A stretch of 52,910 nt of DNA. Origin: a virus (taxonomy: Duplodnaviria; Caudoviricetes). Below the pieces are notes generated by a model, which ran no database searches, had not been told where the DNA came from, and saw only the letters and a list, made by a program, of their open reading frames with translations. Position numbers and translations under genes: made by a program. The stretch lies in the IMG/VR virus record IMGVR_UViG_3300032401_000016, positions 1-52,910 of that record. One strand, 5' to 3'. Each line of letters begins with the position of its first letter. Positions within the stretch are counted from its first letter, which is position 1. This document shows positions 7,978 through 22,433 of this stretch, piece after piece.

Positions 7978-8916
7978 GTGCTGCTGTTCGTTCTGAAGTT
8001 CGTGGTGCTGGCCCTGATCGGGCTCGCGTTCGCGTCGAAGGTGAAGCGCGTCATCAAGGAGACGACGGTCCGGTACGACATGCAGGGCAAGCCCCAGAAC
8101 GTCGAGGTCGAGGTCCCCGGTATCCACATCCCTACGATCGTGGCGGGCGTCGTGGCGCTGATCGTCGCCGGGCTCCTGATGACGTCGTTCGGGGCGCTCG
8201 GGGCCGGCGAGCGGGGGGTCGTGCTCCAGTTCGGCGCGACGACCGGGCGGGTGCTCCAGCCCGGAATCTACGCGGTCGTGCCCCTGATCGAGTCGGTCCA
8301 CGCGGTTGATGTGCAGGTCCAGAAGGAGGAGGTCAACAAGGCGACGGCCGTGAGCCACGACCTCCAGCAGGTCTGGACGAACGTCGCGCTCAACTACTAC
8401 GTGCGCCCCGAGGGCGTCTCGATCCTCTACAAGACGGTTGGCGACGCGTACAAGAACCGGATCATCGACCCCGCGGTCCAGGAAGCCCTGAAGGCCGTGA
8501 CCGCGCGCTTCAGCGCGGAGGACCTGATCGCTCGACGCAACGAGGCGAAGGTCGAGCTCGTTATGGAGATTCAGAACCGGCTCGCGACCCACAACATCGT
8601 GGTCGACGCCGTGAGCCTCACGGACTTCCAGTTCACGGAGGAGTTCACGAACGCGATCGAGGCGAAGGTCACGGCCGCGCAGCTCGCGCTGAAGGCGGAG
8701 AACGACCTCGATCGCGTGCGGTTCGAGTCGGAGCAGCGCCTGAACCGGGCGGAGGCCGAGGCGAAGTCGATCGAGATTCAGGCACGCGCGATCCAGAACC
8801 AGGGCGGCGCGGAGTACGTGCGGCTCCAGGCGATCTCGAAGTGGGATGGGAAGCTGCCGGTCAACATGTACGGGAGCGCGCCGGTGCCGTTCCTCAACAT
8901 CGCGGCGCACCAGTAG
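7978..8916 (+). CDS. SPFH/band 7 (prohibitin-like) membrane protein
   Basis: Two N-terminal TM helices, GERGVV..FG, coiled-coil AIEAKVTA, KWDGKLP end motif. GGAGGAGG RBS. Confidence 0.92.
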   Translation: MLLFVLKFVVLALIGLAFASKVKRVIKETTVRYDMQGKPQNVEVEVPGIHIPTIVAGVVALIVAGLLMTSFGALGAGERGVVLQFGATTGRVLQPGIYAVVPLIESVHAVDVQVQKEEVNKATAVSHDLQQVWTNVALNYYVRPEGVSILYKTVGDAYKNRIIDPAVQEALKAVTARFSAEDLIARRNEAKVELVMEIQNRLATHNIVVDAVSLTDFQFTEEFTNAIEAKVTAAQLALKAENDLDRVRFESEQRLNRAEAEAKSIEIQARAIQNQGGAEYVRLQAISKWDGKLPVNMYGSAPVPFLNIAAHQ

Positions 8917-8954
8917 TGTTCGCGCACGTCAGGCACGTCTATCTCGGTGGGCTC

Positions 8955-9122
8955 ATGAGCCAGATCGCGGTGTTCGACGCGTCGAAGGAGGTGGTGCCGG
9001 GAATCCGTCAGGGATGCCCCCCGTGGTTCGCGAGGGTCTCGTTCCCGACGTTCGACATCTACCTCACGGAGGAAGACGCGAAGGAGCTCGCGAGGCAGTT
9101 GCTCTCTCCCGCCGGCTATTAG
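8955..9122 (+). CDS. Hypothetical small protein
   Basis: ATG ORF ending just before the terminator. Confidence 0.5.
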   Translation: MSQIAVFDASKEVVPGIRQGCPPWFARVSFPTFDIYLTEEDAKELARQLLSPAGY

Positions 9123-9130
9123 CCAGAAAC

Positions 9131-9167
9131 AAAGAACCCCCGGGGCCTCACGGCTCCGGGGGTTTTT
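9131..9167. terminator. Bidirectional intrinsic terminator
   Basis: AACCCCCGGGGCC-TCAC-GGCTCCGGGGGTT hairpin flanked by A and T runs, between convergent genes. Confidence 0.85.
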
Positions 9168-9180
9168 GCGTTCGGGCGGG

Positions 9181-9438
9181 TTAGCGCACGAGCTTGTAGA
9201 GCGACGCCGGGTCGGGCGAGACCTCGGTGCCGTCGAGGGTGATCTTGTCGAGCATCATGCCAGCGTCGGGCGTGATCTCGAACGTGATGTCGGTTCCGCC
9301 CGCGACCTGCGTGGTTCCGGGCGAGACGGTTCCGCCGGGGCCGGCGTTGACGGTGATCGTGAAGAGCGCGACGAGGGCCTTGAACGTGGCCTCGAGGATG
9401 TGGTCGGCCTGGACGTTGATGAGCGTGAAGCGTGCCAT
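9181..9438 (-). CDS. Circularly permuted InlB-B-repeat-like beta-domain protein
   Basis: FTLINVQADHILEATF precedes FTITVNAGPGGTVSP...FEITPDAG...ITLDG, the reverse of the usual repeat order. Confidence 0.7.
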   Translation of the reverse strand: MARFTLINVQADHILEATFKALVALFTITVNAGPGGTVSPGTTQVAGGTDITFEITPDAGMMLDKITLDGTEVSPDPASLYKLVR

Positions 9439-9439
9439 G

Positions 9440-9589
9440 CTAGTTATGCCCCTCGGTCCTGAAGCGGACCGTGATGGTTTGGTCGCTCCTCACGTTGCGG
9501 AGCGTGAGGCGGACCGGGTGGCGCCGGCCGTGATGGCGGTGGCGGTGGTGCTTCTTCCCGAACAGGAGCTCGAACAGGTACCAGATCAT
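9440..9589 (-). CDS. 49-aa His-rich peptide carrying only the terminal strands of the same repeat
   Basis: MIWYLFELLFGKKHHRHRHHGRRHPVRLTLRNVRSDQTITVRFRTEGHN; GGGGGA RBS. Confidence 0.6.
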   Translation of the reverse strand: MIWYLFELLFGKKHHRHRHHGRRHPVRLTLRNVRSDQTITVRFRTEGHN

Positions 9590-9602
9590 CGTTCCCCCAG
9601 AT

Positions 9603-9642
9603 AGAAACGCCCCGCGAAGCCTTGGTGCGGCCCGCGGGGCGC
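9603..9642 (-). terminator. Probable intrinsic terminator at the end of the tRNA operon
   Basis: CGCCCCGCG...CGCGGGGCG stem followed by TTTCTAT on the minus strand. Confidence 0.55.
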
Positions 9643-9647
9643 GGTAT

Positions 9648-9806
9648 CTACCAGGAGAGCCCGAGGCGCCTAAGCACCGCGTGGGCCTTCCGGTTCTCGG
9701 TCCGCACGCGCTGCCGTTCGTACTTCCTGGTGAGCCTGTTGTGGGCGCTTTGTCGCGCCTTCTTGCTGTTGCCCCCAACCTTGATCTTCTTGATCTTGAG
9801 GTCCAT
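9648..9806 (-). CDS. 52-aa highly basic protein
   Basis: AGGAGG RBS; MDLKIKKIKVGGNSKKARQSAHNRLTRKYERQRVRTENRKAHAVLRRLGLSW. Confidence 0.65.
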   Translation of the reverse strand: MDLKIKKIKVGGNSKKARQSAHNRLTRKYERQRVRTENRKAHAVLRRLGLSW

Positions 9807-9870
9807 GACGTCCTCCTGCTGCGTCTAGCGCAGCTACGAAAGGTCTGTCATGTGATCCTCCTTCTGAAAA

Positions 9871-9943
9871 TGGTCGTGGGCAGGGAATCGAACCCTAGCT
9901 TGACCGTTATCGGCGGCCTGTCCTACCACTAGACGATCCCACG
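9871..9943 (-). tRNA. tRNA-Ile(GAU)
   Basis: Anticodon arm GGCCG-CCGATAA-CGGTC, TTCGA loop, CCA. C33; acceptor 3' strand is one nt short. Confidence 0.85.
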
Positions 9944-9948
9944 AAAGT

Positions 9949-10024
9949 TGGAGTCCTCGGCAGGAGTTGCACCCGCGTCATCCGGGTTCGAAGCCCGGCG
10001 GTCTGTCTGCTGGCCTACGAGGAC
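9949..10024 (-). tRNA. tRNA-Arg(UCG)
   Basis: CCGGG-CTTCGAA-CCCGG; CCA; G55. Confidence 0.88.
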
Positions 10025-10097
10025 GTGACGTATGTTGATTTTTCGTCCATGTACGGATGCGGTGGCAGTTGGCGCACACCACGTCACACTCTGTATG
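10025..10097 (-). pseudogene. HNH endonuclease 3' remnant
   Basis: Spacer translates ECDVVCANCHRIRTW with no start codon or RBS. Confidence 0.75.
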
Positions 10098-10174
10098 TGG
10101 TCTCCTCGGCACGGATCGAACGTGCGGCCTCGATCTTCGCAGGATCGCGCTCTGTCCTACTGAGCTACGAGGAG
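10098..10174 (-). tRNA. tRNA-Arg(GCG)
   Basis: CGATC-CTGCGAA-GATCG; canonical D and T loops; CCA. Confidence 0.92.
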
Positions 10175-10262: not shown

Positions 10263-10496
10263 CTACTTCGTGCCGTGCTCGCGATCGAGCGCGTCCGAGA
10301 GGCGCCCTTCGAGGATCGCGATCTTCGTGAGCGCATCGGAGAGCCGGCTGTTGACGAGCACGTGAATCTCCTGGAGCTTCTCCGCCGTAGCGGTCACGTT
10401 CTTGACGCTCTTGCGGGCCTGGAGAATCACAACGATCAGGGTCGGGAGGCTTGCGATCAGCGCGATGATGATAGCGATGGTGTCGGCGTGCGTCAC
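10263..10496 (-). CDS. Small single-TM coiled-coil protein (holin-like)
   Basis: TIAIIIALIASLPTLIVVIL TM followed by a heptad helix; GTG directly after a tRNA. Confidence 0.65.
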   Translation of the reverse strand: MTHADTIAIIIALIASLPTLIVVILQARKSVKNVTATAEKLQEIHVLVNSRLSDALTKIAILEGRLSDALDREHGTK

Positions 10497-12989: not shown

Positions 12990-13079
12990 TGGCGGAGGCG
13001 CGAGGGATCGAACCTCGGCGCGCTGTTGAGCGCGGCTACGGTTTAGCAAACCGTCCCGTTACCGCTCCGGCACGCCTCC
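12990..13079 (-). tRNA. tRNA-Ser(GCU)
   Basis: ACGGT-TTGCTAA-ACCGT; long variable arm; G73, CCA. Confidence 0.9.
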
Positions 13080-13249
13080 TACTTCTTCTTGCCCTTCATC
13101 ACCTTGATCGCCTTCTTCACGACCTTGTGGAGGGACTTGTCTTCCTTCTCGGCCTTCTCGTAGGCTCGGGTCTCGCCGGCCTCGTGGGAGACCGTTTCCT
13201 TCTCGCGGCGCGCGTCGGCACGCATCTTCGGATTGACACGACGTGCCAT
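13079..13249 (-). CDS. 56-aa basic protein inside the tRNA array
   Basis: AGGAG RBS; MARRVNPK...KVMKGKKK. Confidence 0.7.
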   Translation of the reverse strand: MARRVNPKMRADARREKETVSHEAGETRAYEKAEKEDKSLHKVVKKAIKVMKGKKK

Positions 13250-13258
13250 TTCTTCTCC

Positions 13259-13334
13259 TGGTCGGGTGGCGCGGATTCGCACCGCGATTGGCTCGCTTCC
13301 AGGGCGAGGGGCTTGGCTGTTAGCCGACCGCCCG
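13259..13334 (-). tRNA. tRNA-Pro(UGG)
   Basis: CTCGC-CCTGGAA-GCGAG (C33, A37); C1-G72; CCA. Confidence 0.85.
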
Positions 13335-19700: not shown

Positions 19701-21482
19701 GGGCCCCGGGAGCGGGGCGTCGGTAGCGCCCCGGAGGTTCGAGCTCGGGCGCTGCATGTAGACGACGTCGGGTCCGCCCGGGGTCCAGTTCGGCTCCCGG
19801 CGGTACTCCTTGAACCCGAAGAGCTTGTAGAAGTCCGGGAGGTACGGGTCGAACACGTCGAGGTGGGTCGCGCCCATGTCTACGGCGTCCTGGGCCGCGA
19901 TCGCTCCGGCCCCCGGCCTTCCGGCGTTGAAGAGCGACGCGAGCTCGAGCCCGCCATCCTCTCGGGGGATCAGCGCGAAACCGGTTTTCCCGTCGGGGGC
20001 CAGGTACGTCTTCGCGCCCTTCCCCGCGAGGTCCTCGGCCGTGTAGGGCGTCAGCATACTTCCGACCGTGTTCCCGGTCCGGGTCGGGACGTCCTTCACG
20101 GCCTGCACGGCCGCGACGAACGCCGCGGGGTCCGCGGGCTGGACCGTGCGGGCTCCCCCGAACGCCGCCGAGGGCTCAAGCGGCGCTGCGGCCGGGGGAG
20201 TCGGGGGGCGCTCCGGGAGGACCTGCTCGATCGGGCTCTGGAGCCCCGGGACGCTCTGGGGCGGCGCGGCGGGCAGCGGGCCCTCGGCCGTGACCCCGAG
20301 GGGGGCTACGGGCGGTCCGGGCGGGACTGCGGTGGGCTCGAGCACGGCGGCGCCGGCGGCCGGCCGGGGCTGCTCGAGCGGCCCTACGACCTCCAGCGGC
20401 TGCTGGGGCGCGCGGGGCGCCTCTACCATTCGGCCCTCGGGGGCGAGGCGCGCGGCCGGGCCCTCGGGGGGAGGCATGGGGGCGGCTCCCTGGAGGCCGG
20501 GAACGCGTCCCTCGATGGTGTTCGGCTCCGGCCCGAGGCCGGGGTACTGGCCGGCCGGGGGCTCCGTCACGGTGCGCGGCGGGCCGGCCGGCGGGAGCTC
20601 GACCGGGTGCGGCTCGACCGGCTCCGGAACGGGCTTGGTCCCGAGGCGCTCGGCCACCGAGGCCTCGAGCGGCGCGGCCGGGGTTCCGAGCCAGTAGCGG
20701 AGCTGGCGGCCCGCGGCCTCGCCGCCGGCGTGGAGCCCGGCCCCGATGAGGGAGCCGGCCACGACGCCCTGGGCGACGTTCGACACGAGCTGCTGGGGGT
20801 CCTCGCCCTTCAGGGTCCCGAGGATGCCCTCGTACGTGCCGCCGTACGTGGCGCCCGCGGCCGCCGCGCGCTGCCACGCGGCCGCGCCGGCCTCCGCCAG
20901 CCCGCGCCCGAGGGCCTGCTCGGCCTTGTAGCCGGCGAACAGCGACCCGACCTCGGCCGCCGCGCGCGGGAGGGCCTCGACGGCCTGGGCTGGACCCGTC
21001 TCGATTCCGGTGGCCTTCTTGAGGCTCTTCCGGGCCCCGGCCGGGAGGGCCGCGGTCGGGAGGTACATGAGCTTCCCGACGGCTTCCGAGCCCTCGCGCA
21101 GGGTGTTGAGTACCCCGCCCCCGAGGGCCCCAGCCGCTCCCCGCACGGCCTCGGCCTCCGGGGTCTTCAGGCCCGCGAGGGCCTCCGGGATTCCGGGGCT
21201 CACCATGCGGCCGAGCTGCGACAGGACCCCCCGTCCCTTGGGCGGGACCGGGGCCGGGCCGTAGGTCTTCGCGAGCCCGACGAGGAACTGCTCCTCCGTC
21301 AGGTCCCCGAAGTCGACCTTGTGGACGCCCTTGATGAGCTTTTCGTCATCTAGGTCCTCGAGCTCGGGGTAGAGCGAGCGCAGCCCGGCCACTGGCCCCT
21401 GGGGGCTCGGGGGGGCTACGGGGGGCGGCTCAGGTCGGGTGCGCTCGGGTGCTACCGGCTTCCAGCCCTGGGGGTCGGCCAC
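16716..21482 (-). CDS. 1588-aa polyvalent internal virion protein (GNAT-like, metallopeptidase-like, HhH-glycosylase-like and duplicated C-terminal domains)
   Basis: GGAGG RBS; motifs LDVFD..LPDFYKLFGFKE, RAVHDLFGH, TVDVWM...LQAVLW, and two PDG/PNG...H...GxIRV...PTxEQ repeats. Confidence 0.8.
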   Translation of the reverse strand: MADPQGWKPVAPERTRPEPPPVAPPSPQGPVAGLRSLYPELEDLDDEKLIKGVHKVDFGDLTEEQFLVGLAKTYGPAPVPPKGRGVLSQLGRMVSPGIPEALAGLKTPEAEAVRGAAGALGGGVLNTLREGSEAVGKLMYLPTAALPAGARKSLKKATGIETGPAQAVEALPRAAAEVGSLFAGYKAEQALGRGLAEAGAAAWQRAAAAGATYGGTYEGILGTLKGEDPQQLVSNVAQGVVAGSLIGAGLHAGGEAAGRQLRYWLGTPAAPLEASVAERLGTKPVPEPVEPHPVELPPAGPPRTVTEPPAGQYPGLGPEPNTIEGRVPGLQGAAPMPPPEGPAARLAPEGRMVEAPRAPQQPLEVVGPLEQPRPAAGAAVLEPTAVPPGPPVAPLGVTAEGPLPAAPPQSVPGLQSPIEQVLPERPPTPPAAAPLEPSAAFGGARTVQPADPAAFVAAVQAVKDVPTRTGNTVGSMLTPYTAEDLAGKGAKTYLAPDGKTGFALIPREDGGLELASLFNAGRPGAGAIAAQDAVDMGATHLDVFDPYLPDFYKLFGFKEYRREPNWTPGGPDVVYMQRPSSNLRGATDAPLPGPGHWREFTELADRNIVAAKARILERQQARVASGEIKGVQTDFYNLFAGEGGYIDPANIRDAAIIGANYILRGATKFADFSTMMLQDFGEAVQPHLNRLYQSALAMHNSRGTVGNDYSRVIASHYMDELGGGLPPVARDFLEFRNSWGRDIASLYNKLPEKDPSAKKHYDALKNEVKRQFKKAQDSGINFVFEGTGDPYRGSVESLNRDLRENNTIRLPKTPDDYSHPFMSPEDNDMLRAVHDLFGHSASGYGFDTRGAYNAWLAHSELFSNMAIPALATETLGQTASVRFGKILSKEASEARPFTLAKPKGAILPEKEFSGIIEARGKGKVYDSLSAGAPTTSTERVSTTHVARRLTKGVPKAADLVEARSRAESDILENVKKYMDANPKAAVWYHDDIAAFEKNVQKEFPHLLGNPGGLGVYKMVTAITSPTRKPILNVDTASRVWDHYSRTGKVPIIARLGQELGRNVRPSLTKVSKLVQEHGGEQQLVDYLLTKNEKGVYNAVSEFGPKVGRFWLNLMGIHDEVTVDVWMTRWWHRLMGTPFDKNGVLIDAPVNDEEGEVIRATIIDMANQLGIDPDALQAVLWDREKRLWREAGARDSGDLAFAAASEIVFKNRAESHAKAPGRFIPPPEQGALALGAAAPEPMIAPADLLKKSLAKKPPAGKALWEQVVALYSKRPLGKGELAVVKPADGSFLEPAYVVPDGRVMRLGTDTHHELAEGAYKKLKVKYEGDASVAFQREGMIRVNPGMDNFAVSIGKAPTPEQVQTIARQYKMHQEHGNEAGITAEIYTESGGLWPSNIIEAKTFGEFQRGIEDTYKWNDTVQKMVTTVKHMVTSPKDVGLSKGRTMLWLAPNGTLIAAKDGRHSMVADQMLRGAGVTAPPTIGANNGSNQTLLNLGFIRVQARGELNAELTYRPTNEQTSIILEILPNTTFGVGNAVSPRGTFSSIIADTWPKFQRMCVELPYRFQRAGEGRALPKGYGPEEPAATRGTQ

Positions 21483-21485
21483 GGG

Positions 21486-22433
21486 TTACCCTCCGGTCGC
21501 GGCGGCGCGGATCGCGTCGATCTTGCCCTGCCGCGGGCTGGCCGGCGTGGTGGGCGAGGCGGCGGCGCCGGCGCCGGGCGTCGAGGGCGTGAGCTTCCCG
21601 TCCGCGTAGTCCTGGAGGACCTGGCGGTCGGACGCGTCCATGTCGGCGTTCTCCCGCGCCTTGAGCTCGTCCTTCTTGGCCTCCGTCAGCATCGCGAGGC
21701 CGCCGAGCGCCCGGATGTACGCGTCGGTCGAGGTCTGGATCGCCATGCGGCGGCGCTCCATCGCCTGCGCGACGTGCTTCGGGACGCTGTAGAGCGACTG
21801 GAGCTGGTCGGTCTTGAGGGCCGCGTTGAGTCGCGCGAGGCTCTCCTTCCCGCCGTACGTCGCCCTGATCTTCTCGAGGGCGCGCTGGTGCTCGACCTTC
21901 CCCTCCTCCTCCTTGCGGGCGCGCTCGTCCTTCGCATTCTTCGCGTTGAGGGCCCCGATTTCCTCCTCCTTCTTGAGCGCGGTCTTCACGTCGTTCGAGC
22001 GGAGCGCCATGTCGGCCTCGGCCTTGAGGCGCGAGAGGTGGAGATCACGCAGGCCGCCGACCCGGGTCTGCTGCGACGCGAGCGACTCGCGGCGCCGCTG
22101 CTCGACGGTCGAGAGGACCTGCTCCGCGATCCCGGACTGGCCGGTGAGCGAGGAGCCCATGATCCCCATCGCGGCCGCGCCCGCGGCCTGGAGCGGGTTC
22201 ATCGGGGCGACCTGCGGCTCGGCCTCCTGCCGCGAGGCCTCTTCCTCGAACATCTTGCGGACGTCGTCGTTGAGCCGGAGCTGACCCTGGTCGATCATCG
22301 AGGAGAGCCGCCCGAAAACGCCGCGAATGCGCTGCACTTCTGGGTCGTTCTCGTCGGCGGGTACTTCCTGCGGGGTCGCGCTCGTGGGGGCCGTCAGGCT
22401 CTGTCCCTGGAGTGTGTTCTGGAGGTCTGCCAT
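21486..22433 (-). CDS. Coiled-coil internal virion protein
   Basis: AAGGAG RBS; helical, charged; lies in the ejection cluster. Confidence 0.7.
   Translation of the reverse strand: MADLQNTLQGQSLTAPTSATPQEVPADENDPEVQRIRGVFGRLSSMIDQGQLRLNDDVRKMFEEEASRQEAEPQVAPMNPLQAAGAAAMGIMGSSLTGQSGIAEQVLSTVEQRRRESLASQQTRVGGLRDLHLSRLKAEADMALRSNDVKTALKKEEEIGALNAKNAKDERARKEEEGKVEHQRALEKIRATYGGKESLARLNAALKTDQLQSLYSVPKHVAQAMERRRMAIQTSTDAYIRALGGLAMLTEAKKDELKARENADMDASDRQVLQDYADGKLTPSTPGAGAAASPTTPASPRQGKIDAIRAAATGG

Follow-up and report, generated by a model that had tools for sequence, protein, structure and literature searches.

A two-gene phage module from one Flg_new_2 repeat unit cut out of register, with a candidate donor peptide

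Introduction

Two adjacent small genes in a virus of the Caudoviricetes (Duplodnaviria) raise the question whether a protein that carries the strands of one repeat domain in swapped order is completed by strands from another chain. The window analysed here is the whole IMG/VR record IMGVR_UViG_3300032401_000016, a stretch of 52,910 bases that CheckV estimates to be complete and that has a G+C content of 62-76%. The genes in question encode P0001, of 85 amino acids (aa) (9438-9181, minus strand), and P0002, of 49 aa (9589-9440, minus strand), which lies immediately upstream. A preliminary description had read P0001 as a divergent InlB B-repeat with its last two strands first and the rest after, and P0002 as those two strands only, fused to a hydrophobic N-terminus and a His/Arg tract. 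It had further suggested that each subunit could complete its neighbour's fold to build a filament, in a two-gene pilus-like system. In this study we describe the pair as a conserved two-gene phage module in which, to judge from homology, one Flg_new_2 unit is cut out of register and split between two genes.

Results

Strand order of P0001

P0001 matched the Pfam profile PF18998 (Flg_new_2) over profile positions 2-49 of 73, corresponding to its residues 27-75 (E 4.5e-7; 30.2 bits, cut-off 23.6). In the genome-wide search the score was 28.7 bits, also above the cut-off, and P0001 was the only PF18998 match in the window's genome. The whole domain in native strand order was not found in P0001; positions 2-49 were contiguous and positions 56-73 lay N-terminal of them. 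An in-register hidden Markov model (HMM) of 74 positions, built from 11 in-register repeats out of three loci, matched P0001 in the same swapped order, with HMM positions 56-73 at residues 4-21 and positions 2-52 at residues 26-75. All four sequences of the P0001 type were hit in two swapped pieces: residues 4-21 aligned with the last ~17 HMM positions and residues 25-76 with the first ~50. In five shuffle tests of 200 sequences each, which included P0002 and the first 24 residues of P0001, 0/200 reached the observed HMM score.

P0001 could be divided into three parts. The N-terminal hairpin (residues 4-21; 9376-9429, minus strand) corresponds to the last two strands of the domain (i-E-value 9.7e-5). 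The body (residues 26-75; 9214-9363, minus strand) corresponds to its first five strands, as delimited by the Pfam match, the HMM match and the strands of the AlphaFold2 model. The remaining 10 residues form a C-terminal tail (residues 76-85; 9184-9213, minus strand), which was found only in the window's copy and is missing from the relatives of 78-79 aa. The tail aligned with the beginning of the next hairpin of a native array (L009:6484-6726) and reads as a relic of the next repeat's strand. Hairpin and body are joined by a linker of 5-6 residues; the native inter-repeat linker has 4 residues (L006). P0001 carries an N-terminal extension that matches its missing strands, as a donor-strand fibre subunit would (residues 4-21 against HMM 56-73), and also, like a circular permutant, two homologous segments swapped within one unit length (4/4 family members; 78-85 aa).

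Among 599 candidates, 13 long proteins matched P0001 at E <= 0.01 with 35-49% identity over 79-98% of P0001; 10 of the 13 carried PF18998, and the alignments spanned the repeat junction. Three long proteins (P0011, P0013 and P0014; 404-496 aa) had an N-terminal region in common, after which came 3-5 in-register Flg_new_2 repeats, and their C-termini varied; P0011 and P0013 had no PHROG family. Because of the Pfam match, the swapped HMM pieces, the junction-spanning homologues and the alignment of the tail, we regard P0001 as an out-of-register slice of a tandem array, and by its sequence it clearly derives from such a slice of a multi-repeat gene. The strand order given in the preliminary description was borne out.

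An antisense open reading frame (ORF) at 9227-9604 (plus strand) was considered and rejected as a true gene; its third-position GC is 0.79, against 0.93-0.94 for the two genes, and the Pfam match lies on the minus strand. A programmed frameshift fusing P0002 and P0001 was likewise rejected, as no slippery site was seen and the fusion would still be out of register. The +1 frame relation between the two genes is alike in the window and in L002, a related locus described below.

The hairpin-only peptide P0002

P0002 consists of a hydrophobic head (residues 1-11), a His/Arg tract (residues 12-24) and a two-strand hairpin (residues 25-45; 9455-9517, minus strand) homologous to the last two strands of the Flg_new_2 repeat by phmmer and HMM. 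The sole match of the in-register HMM was at positions 57-73, on residues 29-45, and the three small peptides of this kind all matched solely at the last ~18 positions. When P0002 was searched with phmmer against 1.84 billion representatives, the matches were itself and P0018 only. P0018 is a protein of 846 aa with 8 Flg_new_2 stretches, in 6 of which it matched residues 25-45 of P0002 (E 1.7e-6). These results agree with the earlier reading of the peptide as the last two strands alone. Its hydrophobic N-terminus (11 aa) and His/Arg tract were also present as described, with 7 His and a net charge of +8.

On the Kyte-Doolittle scale the best 19-residue mean of P0002 was -0.29, the first 11 residues averaging 1.57; the relatives' peptides reached up to 1.56 and 2.12. 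By these values the hydrophobic stretch of the window's peptide is too short and too weak for a membrane helix. No usable match to P0002 was found in the ESM Atlas.

Relatives, conservation and selection

The metagenome scan gave six loci (L002-L007). Four of them (L002-L005), all phage contigs, encode an orthologue of P0001 that has 78 aa and 56-63% identity, and the other two (L006, L007) are cellular multi-repeat proteins. A further orthologue of 79 aa (P0020) was found by profile search and represents a fourth lineage with a like layout. Together with P0004 of L002, P0019 of L003 and the window's own copy this makes four diverged sequences in one layout. The upstream peptide gene was present in 3/3 related loci that hold upstream DNA (L002, L003 and L005, of which L003 equals L005; L004 is cut). 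There the peptide has 60-61 aa, with a Leu-rich head, a basic Cys/His stretch and a clearer hairpin motif, and its gene overlaps the P0001-type gene by 35 nt. Canonical Shine-Dalgarno sites precede both genes in the relatives, GGGAGG before the P0001-type gene and AGGAGG or AAGGAGG before the peptide gene. The pair together with its Shine-Dalgarno sites thus recurs in related phage contigs, the gene-pair conservation that the preliminary description had asked about.

Between L002 and L003 the ratio of nonsynonymous to synonymous change (dN/dS) was 0.059/0.237 = 0.25 for the P0001-type gene and 0.145/0.272 = 0.53 for the peptide gene. The gene that follows the pair (L002 2171-3016, L003 515-1375; 281/286 aa) had a dN of 0.63, against 0.06-0.15 for the pair; no family was found for it, and no window counterpart by tblastx. 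Among the four P0001-type sequences the hairpin was the best conserved segment with 12/19 invariant columns, followed by the body with 24/50, and the linker had 0/6. Across lineages the hairpins of the P0001 type shared 10-13/17 identical residues and those of the peptides 8-13/17; between the two types only 5-7/17 were identical. As the classes are conserved within and differ between each other, the two hairpin types would already have been distinct in the common ancestor.

Both window genes have the coding pattern of the genome's long genes, with a third-position GC of 0.93-0.94 (GC by codon position 0.59/0.45/0.93 for P0001 and 0.60/0.38/0.94 for P0002). This coding GC, the recurrent layout, the Shine-Dalgarno sites, the dN/dS below 1 and the separate hairpin classes point to real genes and not to recently decayed fragments of one multi-repeat gene, the outcome that would have spoken against the preliminary description.

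In L002 the portal region is ~56% identical to that of the window phage (tblastx), and the terminase is also matched. In L002 the pair sits in the interval from terminase to portal; an HNH endonuclease gene precedes it, and it is flanked by tRNA-Gln and tRNA-Pro. The pair of L005 follows five tRNA genes, and the pair of the window follows a tRNA array containing an HNH remnant. From these locations the pair seems to travel with tRNA genes.

A scan of viral contigs with P0001 alone gave no relative, and with the alignment only L008, which is L002's contig range. A scan of bacterial genome contigs gave 4 loci (L009-L012) at 40-51% identity, with matches mainly to residues 26-84, or at 42% identity; these we have taken to be in-register repeat proteins of cells, repeat stretches having been cut from L009. 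In a set of 50,697 phage records neither blastn with window positions 8900-9900 nor tblastn with P0001 gave a match. The window's portal protein matched one cultured phage only, at 23.6% identity, and the PHROGs held nothing for P0001, P0002, their neighbour P0003 or the orthologues.

Predicted fold of P0001

The InlB B-repeat is described as beta-grasp and ubiquitin-like (PMC12415215). P0001 was modelled with AlphaFold2 from an alignment of 11 rows, 8 of which are junction slices of tandem arrays. The monomer had a mean predicted local distance difference test (pLDDT) of 74 and a predicted template-modelling score (pTM) of 0.49, and the five models ranged from 48 to 74. Residues 1-24 were without secondary structure, and six DSSP strand segments lay within residues 25-73. 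In blocks of 10 residues the pLDDT was 75-87 over residues 21-70 and 59 at 71-80; the C-terminal tail was disordered, with a pLDDT below 50. As a control we modelled a native slice consisting of an orphan hairpin and a whole in-register unit, also with 11 rows. The control reached a pLDDT of 96.1 and a pTM of 0.78; its unit had eight strands (pLDDT 98), its orphan hairpin none. The ESM Atlas model of P0001 was of low confidence (pTM 0.30) and was not closed either. A closed P0001 monomer is therefore not predicted by these models.

A sequence search of the PDB with P0001 gave 0 matches at E <= 10, and Foldseek with the P0001 model gave 0 PDB matches at E <= 0.001. Weak Foldseek rows of the control model included the streptokinase beta domain, MoaD-type and MucBP entries. 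Caf1M, FaeE and FimA appeared in the Foldseek lists at E > 0.04 only, which is not meaningful. Against the viral models of BFVD the control model had 12 matches at E <= 0.001, with template-modelling scores by query of 0.58-0.67. The names of these matches include tail tube protein and bacterial repeat domain-containing protein, and the fold therefore appears to be common as a decoration of phage particles.

Predicted complex of P0001 and P0002

Full-length P0001 and full-length P0002 were predicted together from alignments of our own making, so that the following benchmark counts hold only roughly for this pair. The interface score ipSAE was 0.60, 0.62 and 0.60 in the runs, and the best of 3 controls had 0.00. 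The pLDDT of the partner was at least 59, and at least 88% of the contacts agreed between runs. In the benchmark the mark was reached by 58/80 solved complexes and 2/110 mismatched pairs; scores of 0.60 or less were found for 7 of those 80 solved complexes and for both passing mismatches. The predicted binding of P0001 and P0002 thus passes weakly, and the heterodimer modelling gives the proposed partnership with the small peptide weak support.

Genomic surroundings of the pair

The structural operon of the window includes the terminase (43901-42084), portal (41050-39137), major head protein (34557-33559) and tail protein (24440-23160), all on the minus strand, and P0001 has the same transcription direction as these late, structural genes. 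A tRNA array (13580-9872, minus strand) lies between the last large structural genes and a trio of small ORFs; its 28 genes serve 17 amino acids. The trio begins directly after the last tRNA gene with P0003 (9806-9648, minus strand), a strongly basic protein of 52 aa with a third-position GC of 0.91, for which no family was found and no counterpart was seen in L002 or L005. Between P0003 and P0002 a strong RNA hairpin is predicted by folding (9598-9650, minus strand; -33.4 kcal/mol, z -3.04, 0/200 shuffles fold as well), followed by UUUCUAUCU. P0002 and P0001 then follow, the TAG stop of P0002 being separated from the ATG of P0001 by 1 nt. Read by eye, a Shine-Dalgarno-like GGGGGA (9593-9598, minus strand) precedes the ATG of P0002, and GAGGGG (9449-9454, minus strand) is placed within the terminal part of P0002, 10 nt ahead of the P0001 ATG.

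A G+C-rich hairpin with T-runs on both strands, at approximately 9135-9168, was identified from a minus-strand site at 9147-9135 together with reading of the sequence and would act as a shared terminator of convergent units. Among the convergent plus-strand genes are those for an SPFH/Band 7 protein and for an exonuclease of the RNase T type, together with a 55-aa ORF. The SPFH/Band 7 protein (7978-8916, plus strand; Pfam E 5.7e-32, phrog_200) has an N-terminal hydrophobic stretch and is convergent with the P0002-P0001 pair. No PHROGs family was found for the ORF at 8955-9122.

The tRNA array contains the remnant of an HNH endonuclease C-terminus (9978-10112, minus strand), which overlaps two tRNA-Arg genes. 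Compared with the intact HNH gene of L002 (1210-1620), 82% of 17 residues are identical (tblastx), and its GC by codon position (0.58/0.64/0.53) is without a coding-type pattern. Between two tRNA-Arg genes lies a 77-aa ORF (10263-10496, minus strand) with a clear hydrophobic helix, a third-position GC of 0.88 and no PHROG family; by these features it is probably a real small membrane protein. A Lys/Glu-rich ORF of 67 aa (13079-13282, minus strand) touches tRNA-Ser and overlaps tRNA-Pro (tgg); it has a third-position GC of 0.79, and the searches gave no family. Elsewhere in the window the G+C content rises up to 75.6% at 20001-22000, within a 1588-aa gene (21482-16716), against 62-70% in other parts, and PHROG matches of the 1588-aa protein were weak or unnamed only.

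Among contigs from the sequencing runs, one (X2) carried the whole stretch with 1 difference (9677) and may be where this DNA came from, and two others held identical pieces (X3, 9109-9455; X4, 9234-9384). These contigs attest to the presence of the DNA only and offer no variation for analysis.

Discussion

A proposed mechanism by completion in trans

In the beta-grasp fold the first and last strands are parallel. P0001 carries the last two strands first, then a linker of 5-6 residues, then the first five strands as its body, and from the beta-grasp topology this linker would be too short for the hairpin to fold back on its own body. Because of the parallel strands and the short linker, the body would need a hairpin from another chain. 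P0002, translated immediately upstream, carries such a hairpin behind a hydrophobic, cationic and His- or Cys-rich head. By docking into the P0001 body it would tether P0001 to whatever the head binds, and the free hairpin of P0001 could then pair with the body of another P0001, so that a small head-to-tail complex would form. We infer that completion of the fold in trans is the most likely mechanism, and the donor role of the peptide and any stoichiometry are part of the same inference. To the specific arrangement, in which the peptide hairpin plugs the P0001 body, leaving P0001 to contact a further copy through its own hairpin within a small complex, we assign a probability of about 0.4. The two phage-encoded proteins are presumably cytoplasmic, and as a guess the pair might serve as a late-expressed tethered scaffold or as a particle decoration.

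Several observations weigh against this arrangement. The head of the peptide is poorly conserved, the window's copy being rich in His and Arg and those of the relatives in Leu, with Cys, and with a dN/dS of 0.53 the peptide gene would be mildly constrained only. The predicted complex passes for binding and does not give the placement of the hairpin in the body, and the pass itself may reflect a mere likeness of the two pieces to an intact domain. Rows from tandem arrays, whose hairpin is part of another domain, may have tilted AlphaFold2 away from a closed monomer. Foldseek with the control model gave 0 PDB matches at E <= 0.001, and the beta-grasp topology was not confirmed by it. With the peptide present, hairpins always outnumber bodies and one is left unsatisfied. 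Finally, none of the sequencing runs listed as carrying the stretch is an RNA run.

Alternative arrangements

The predicted non-closure of the P0001 monomer would also be expected if two copies of P0001 swapped hairpins side by side and antiparallel in a closed reciprocal dimer that satisfies the two bodies, with P0002 as a competitor, a regulator or a protein with a separate role. Domain-swapped dimers are the commonest outcome of swapping. The hairpin of P0001 is nearer to the native consensus than that of P0002 (HMM scores of 12.9, for the first 24 residues, and 6.8), and it is the best conserved segment of the protein. Such a dimer leaves unexplained that all lineages seen retain a hairpin-only peptide directly upstream, and also the weak pass of the hetero-complex; we consider it rather unlikely. 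Dimers, tandem swaps and permutants are treated together in a review (PMC6863430).

P0001 might instead close as a monomer, as a true circular permutant, and P0002 would then be an unrelated small hydrophobic and cationic peptide that uses the motif otherwise. Duplication followed by truncation is an established way for permutants to arise, the total length of P0001 equals one repeat unit, the 78-aa relatives are without redundancy, and the alignment bias may account for the non-closure in AlphaFold2. This has to be set against the lack of closure in both the AlphaFold2 and the low-confidence ESM Atlas models, the short and unconserved linker (0/6 invariant columns) and the retention of the repeat's core motif in the P0002 hairpin across lineages. 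Joining the termini of ubiquitin-type folds is moreover rated as costly in the review, where a table gives -13.4 kcal/mol for ubiquitin at zero linker (PMC6863430). A true permutant is in our opinion unlikely.

All the evidence for completion in trans applies as well to an open-ended head-to-tail polymer, in which each P0001 hairpin completes the next body and P0002 acts as initiator, anchor or cap. The linker is only 1-2 residues above the native 4, so that the native rod geometry would be available. There is also a precedent in that the TapA N-terminus resembles the donor strand of TasA and is modelled as the first strand of the fibre (PMC9674648). Reading of the P0001 and P0002 sequences, without a predictor, revealed no signal peptide, and the annotated neighbours (tRNAs, the 52-aa basic ORF, SPFH/Band 7 and the exonuclease) include no assembly or secretion genes. 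Coupled translation suggests similar amounts of the two products, whereas an initiator should be rare, and the window's peptide is without a convincing membrane helix. We regard the polymer as quite unlikely. The same applies to a non-covalent rod, formed without chaperone, usher or sortase from P0001 hairpins threaded into the next bodies and nucleated or anchored by P0002, which we hold to be improbable. The findings are accounted for just as well by a closed strand-swapped dimer or a 1:1 complex as by a polymer. Of the earlier proposal that each subunit completes its neighbour, the part concerning the fold is in line with the models, since the closed monomer was not predicted (residues 1-24 strandless, pTM 0.49; the caveat of the tandem-array rows applies), and a fibre is possible. 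To speak of a two-gene pilus-like system would go further than the findings allow: reading of the two sequences showed no signal peptide, and among the nearby genes none for a chaperone, usher, sortase or signal peptidase was seen.

That the pair is non-functional debris of a repeat gene in a tRNA-array hotspot appears very improbable. The array does hold other debris, namely the HNH remnant (9978-10112) without coding-type GC, and the C-terminal tail in the window is a relic. Against this stand the third-position GC of 0.93-0.94, the dN/dS below 1, the intact frames and Shine-Dalgarno sites in all copies, and the like start and layout in four diverged lineages.

Comparison with known systems

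The clearest sequence homology of P0001 is to the tandem Flg_new_2/InlB B-repeat arrays (PF18998, PF09479) of bacterial surface proteins. It differs from them as a single out-of-register unit that is encoded by a phage, has no signal peptide by reading and is accompanied by a separate hairpin-only gene.

For the proposed function we see the closest working analogue in TasA/TapA of Bacillus subtilis, where an N-terminal strand completes the next subunit and an accessory protein from the same operon mimics the donor strand (PMC9674648). TasA and TapA differ in being secreted, SipW-processed and of jellyroll fold, with a single donated strand and a TasA monomer that self-complements. P0001 and P0002 would use a two-strand hairpin as donor and a beta-grasp-type repeat, and no secretion signal was seen. 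P0001 may also be likened to the chaperone-usher pili of the FimA/Caf1 type, in which an incomplete fold is completed by the N-terminal extension of the neighbour; these differ from the pair in their chaperone, usher, signal peptides and other fold.

The arrangement of P0001, a C-terminal piece of one repeat joined to the N-terminal piece of the next by a native-type linker, corresponds to the 'central domain' of tandem domain swaps, as defined in the review (PMC6863430). In the literature the central domain is a misfolding state or an engineered construct, whereas P0001 is a free-standing natural gene under purifying selection with a candidate donor peptide. Repeat or Ig-like decoration domains of phage virions are in register and form part of structural proteins by fusion, in contrast to the permuted P0001, which stands alone.

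In the open-access literature we found no description of a free-standing out-of-register single unit with a hairpin-only gene in phages, nor, by titles and the starts of abstracts, a donor-strand-complemented phage fibre. Both the domain family and donor-strand completion are known; the new part, as far as these literature searches go, is the combination of an out-of-register unit with a separate hairpin-only gene in phages.

Significance

The fixed position beside tRNA genes, at differing places in related genomes, suggests that the pair travels with a tRNA/HNH cassette. Should the pair polymerise, no simpler donor-exchange fibre would be known, and none would have come from a phage before, within the reach of our searches of the open-access literature. 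If the rod were true, it would be a minimal two-gene, two-strand donor-exchange polymer, in effect a surface-repeat stalk rebuilt from 8-9-kDa pieces. If completion in trans holds, P0001 and P0002 would represent in nature a state that has otherwise been met in work on misfolding and in engineered proteins, and would form, with 49 and 78-85 aa, a very small complementing pair for study. It would also mean that selection keeps a slice of an array as one gene and the missing strands as a separate gene, and this would be one route from repeat proteins to self-associating small proteins.

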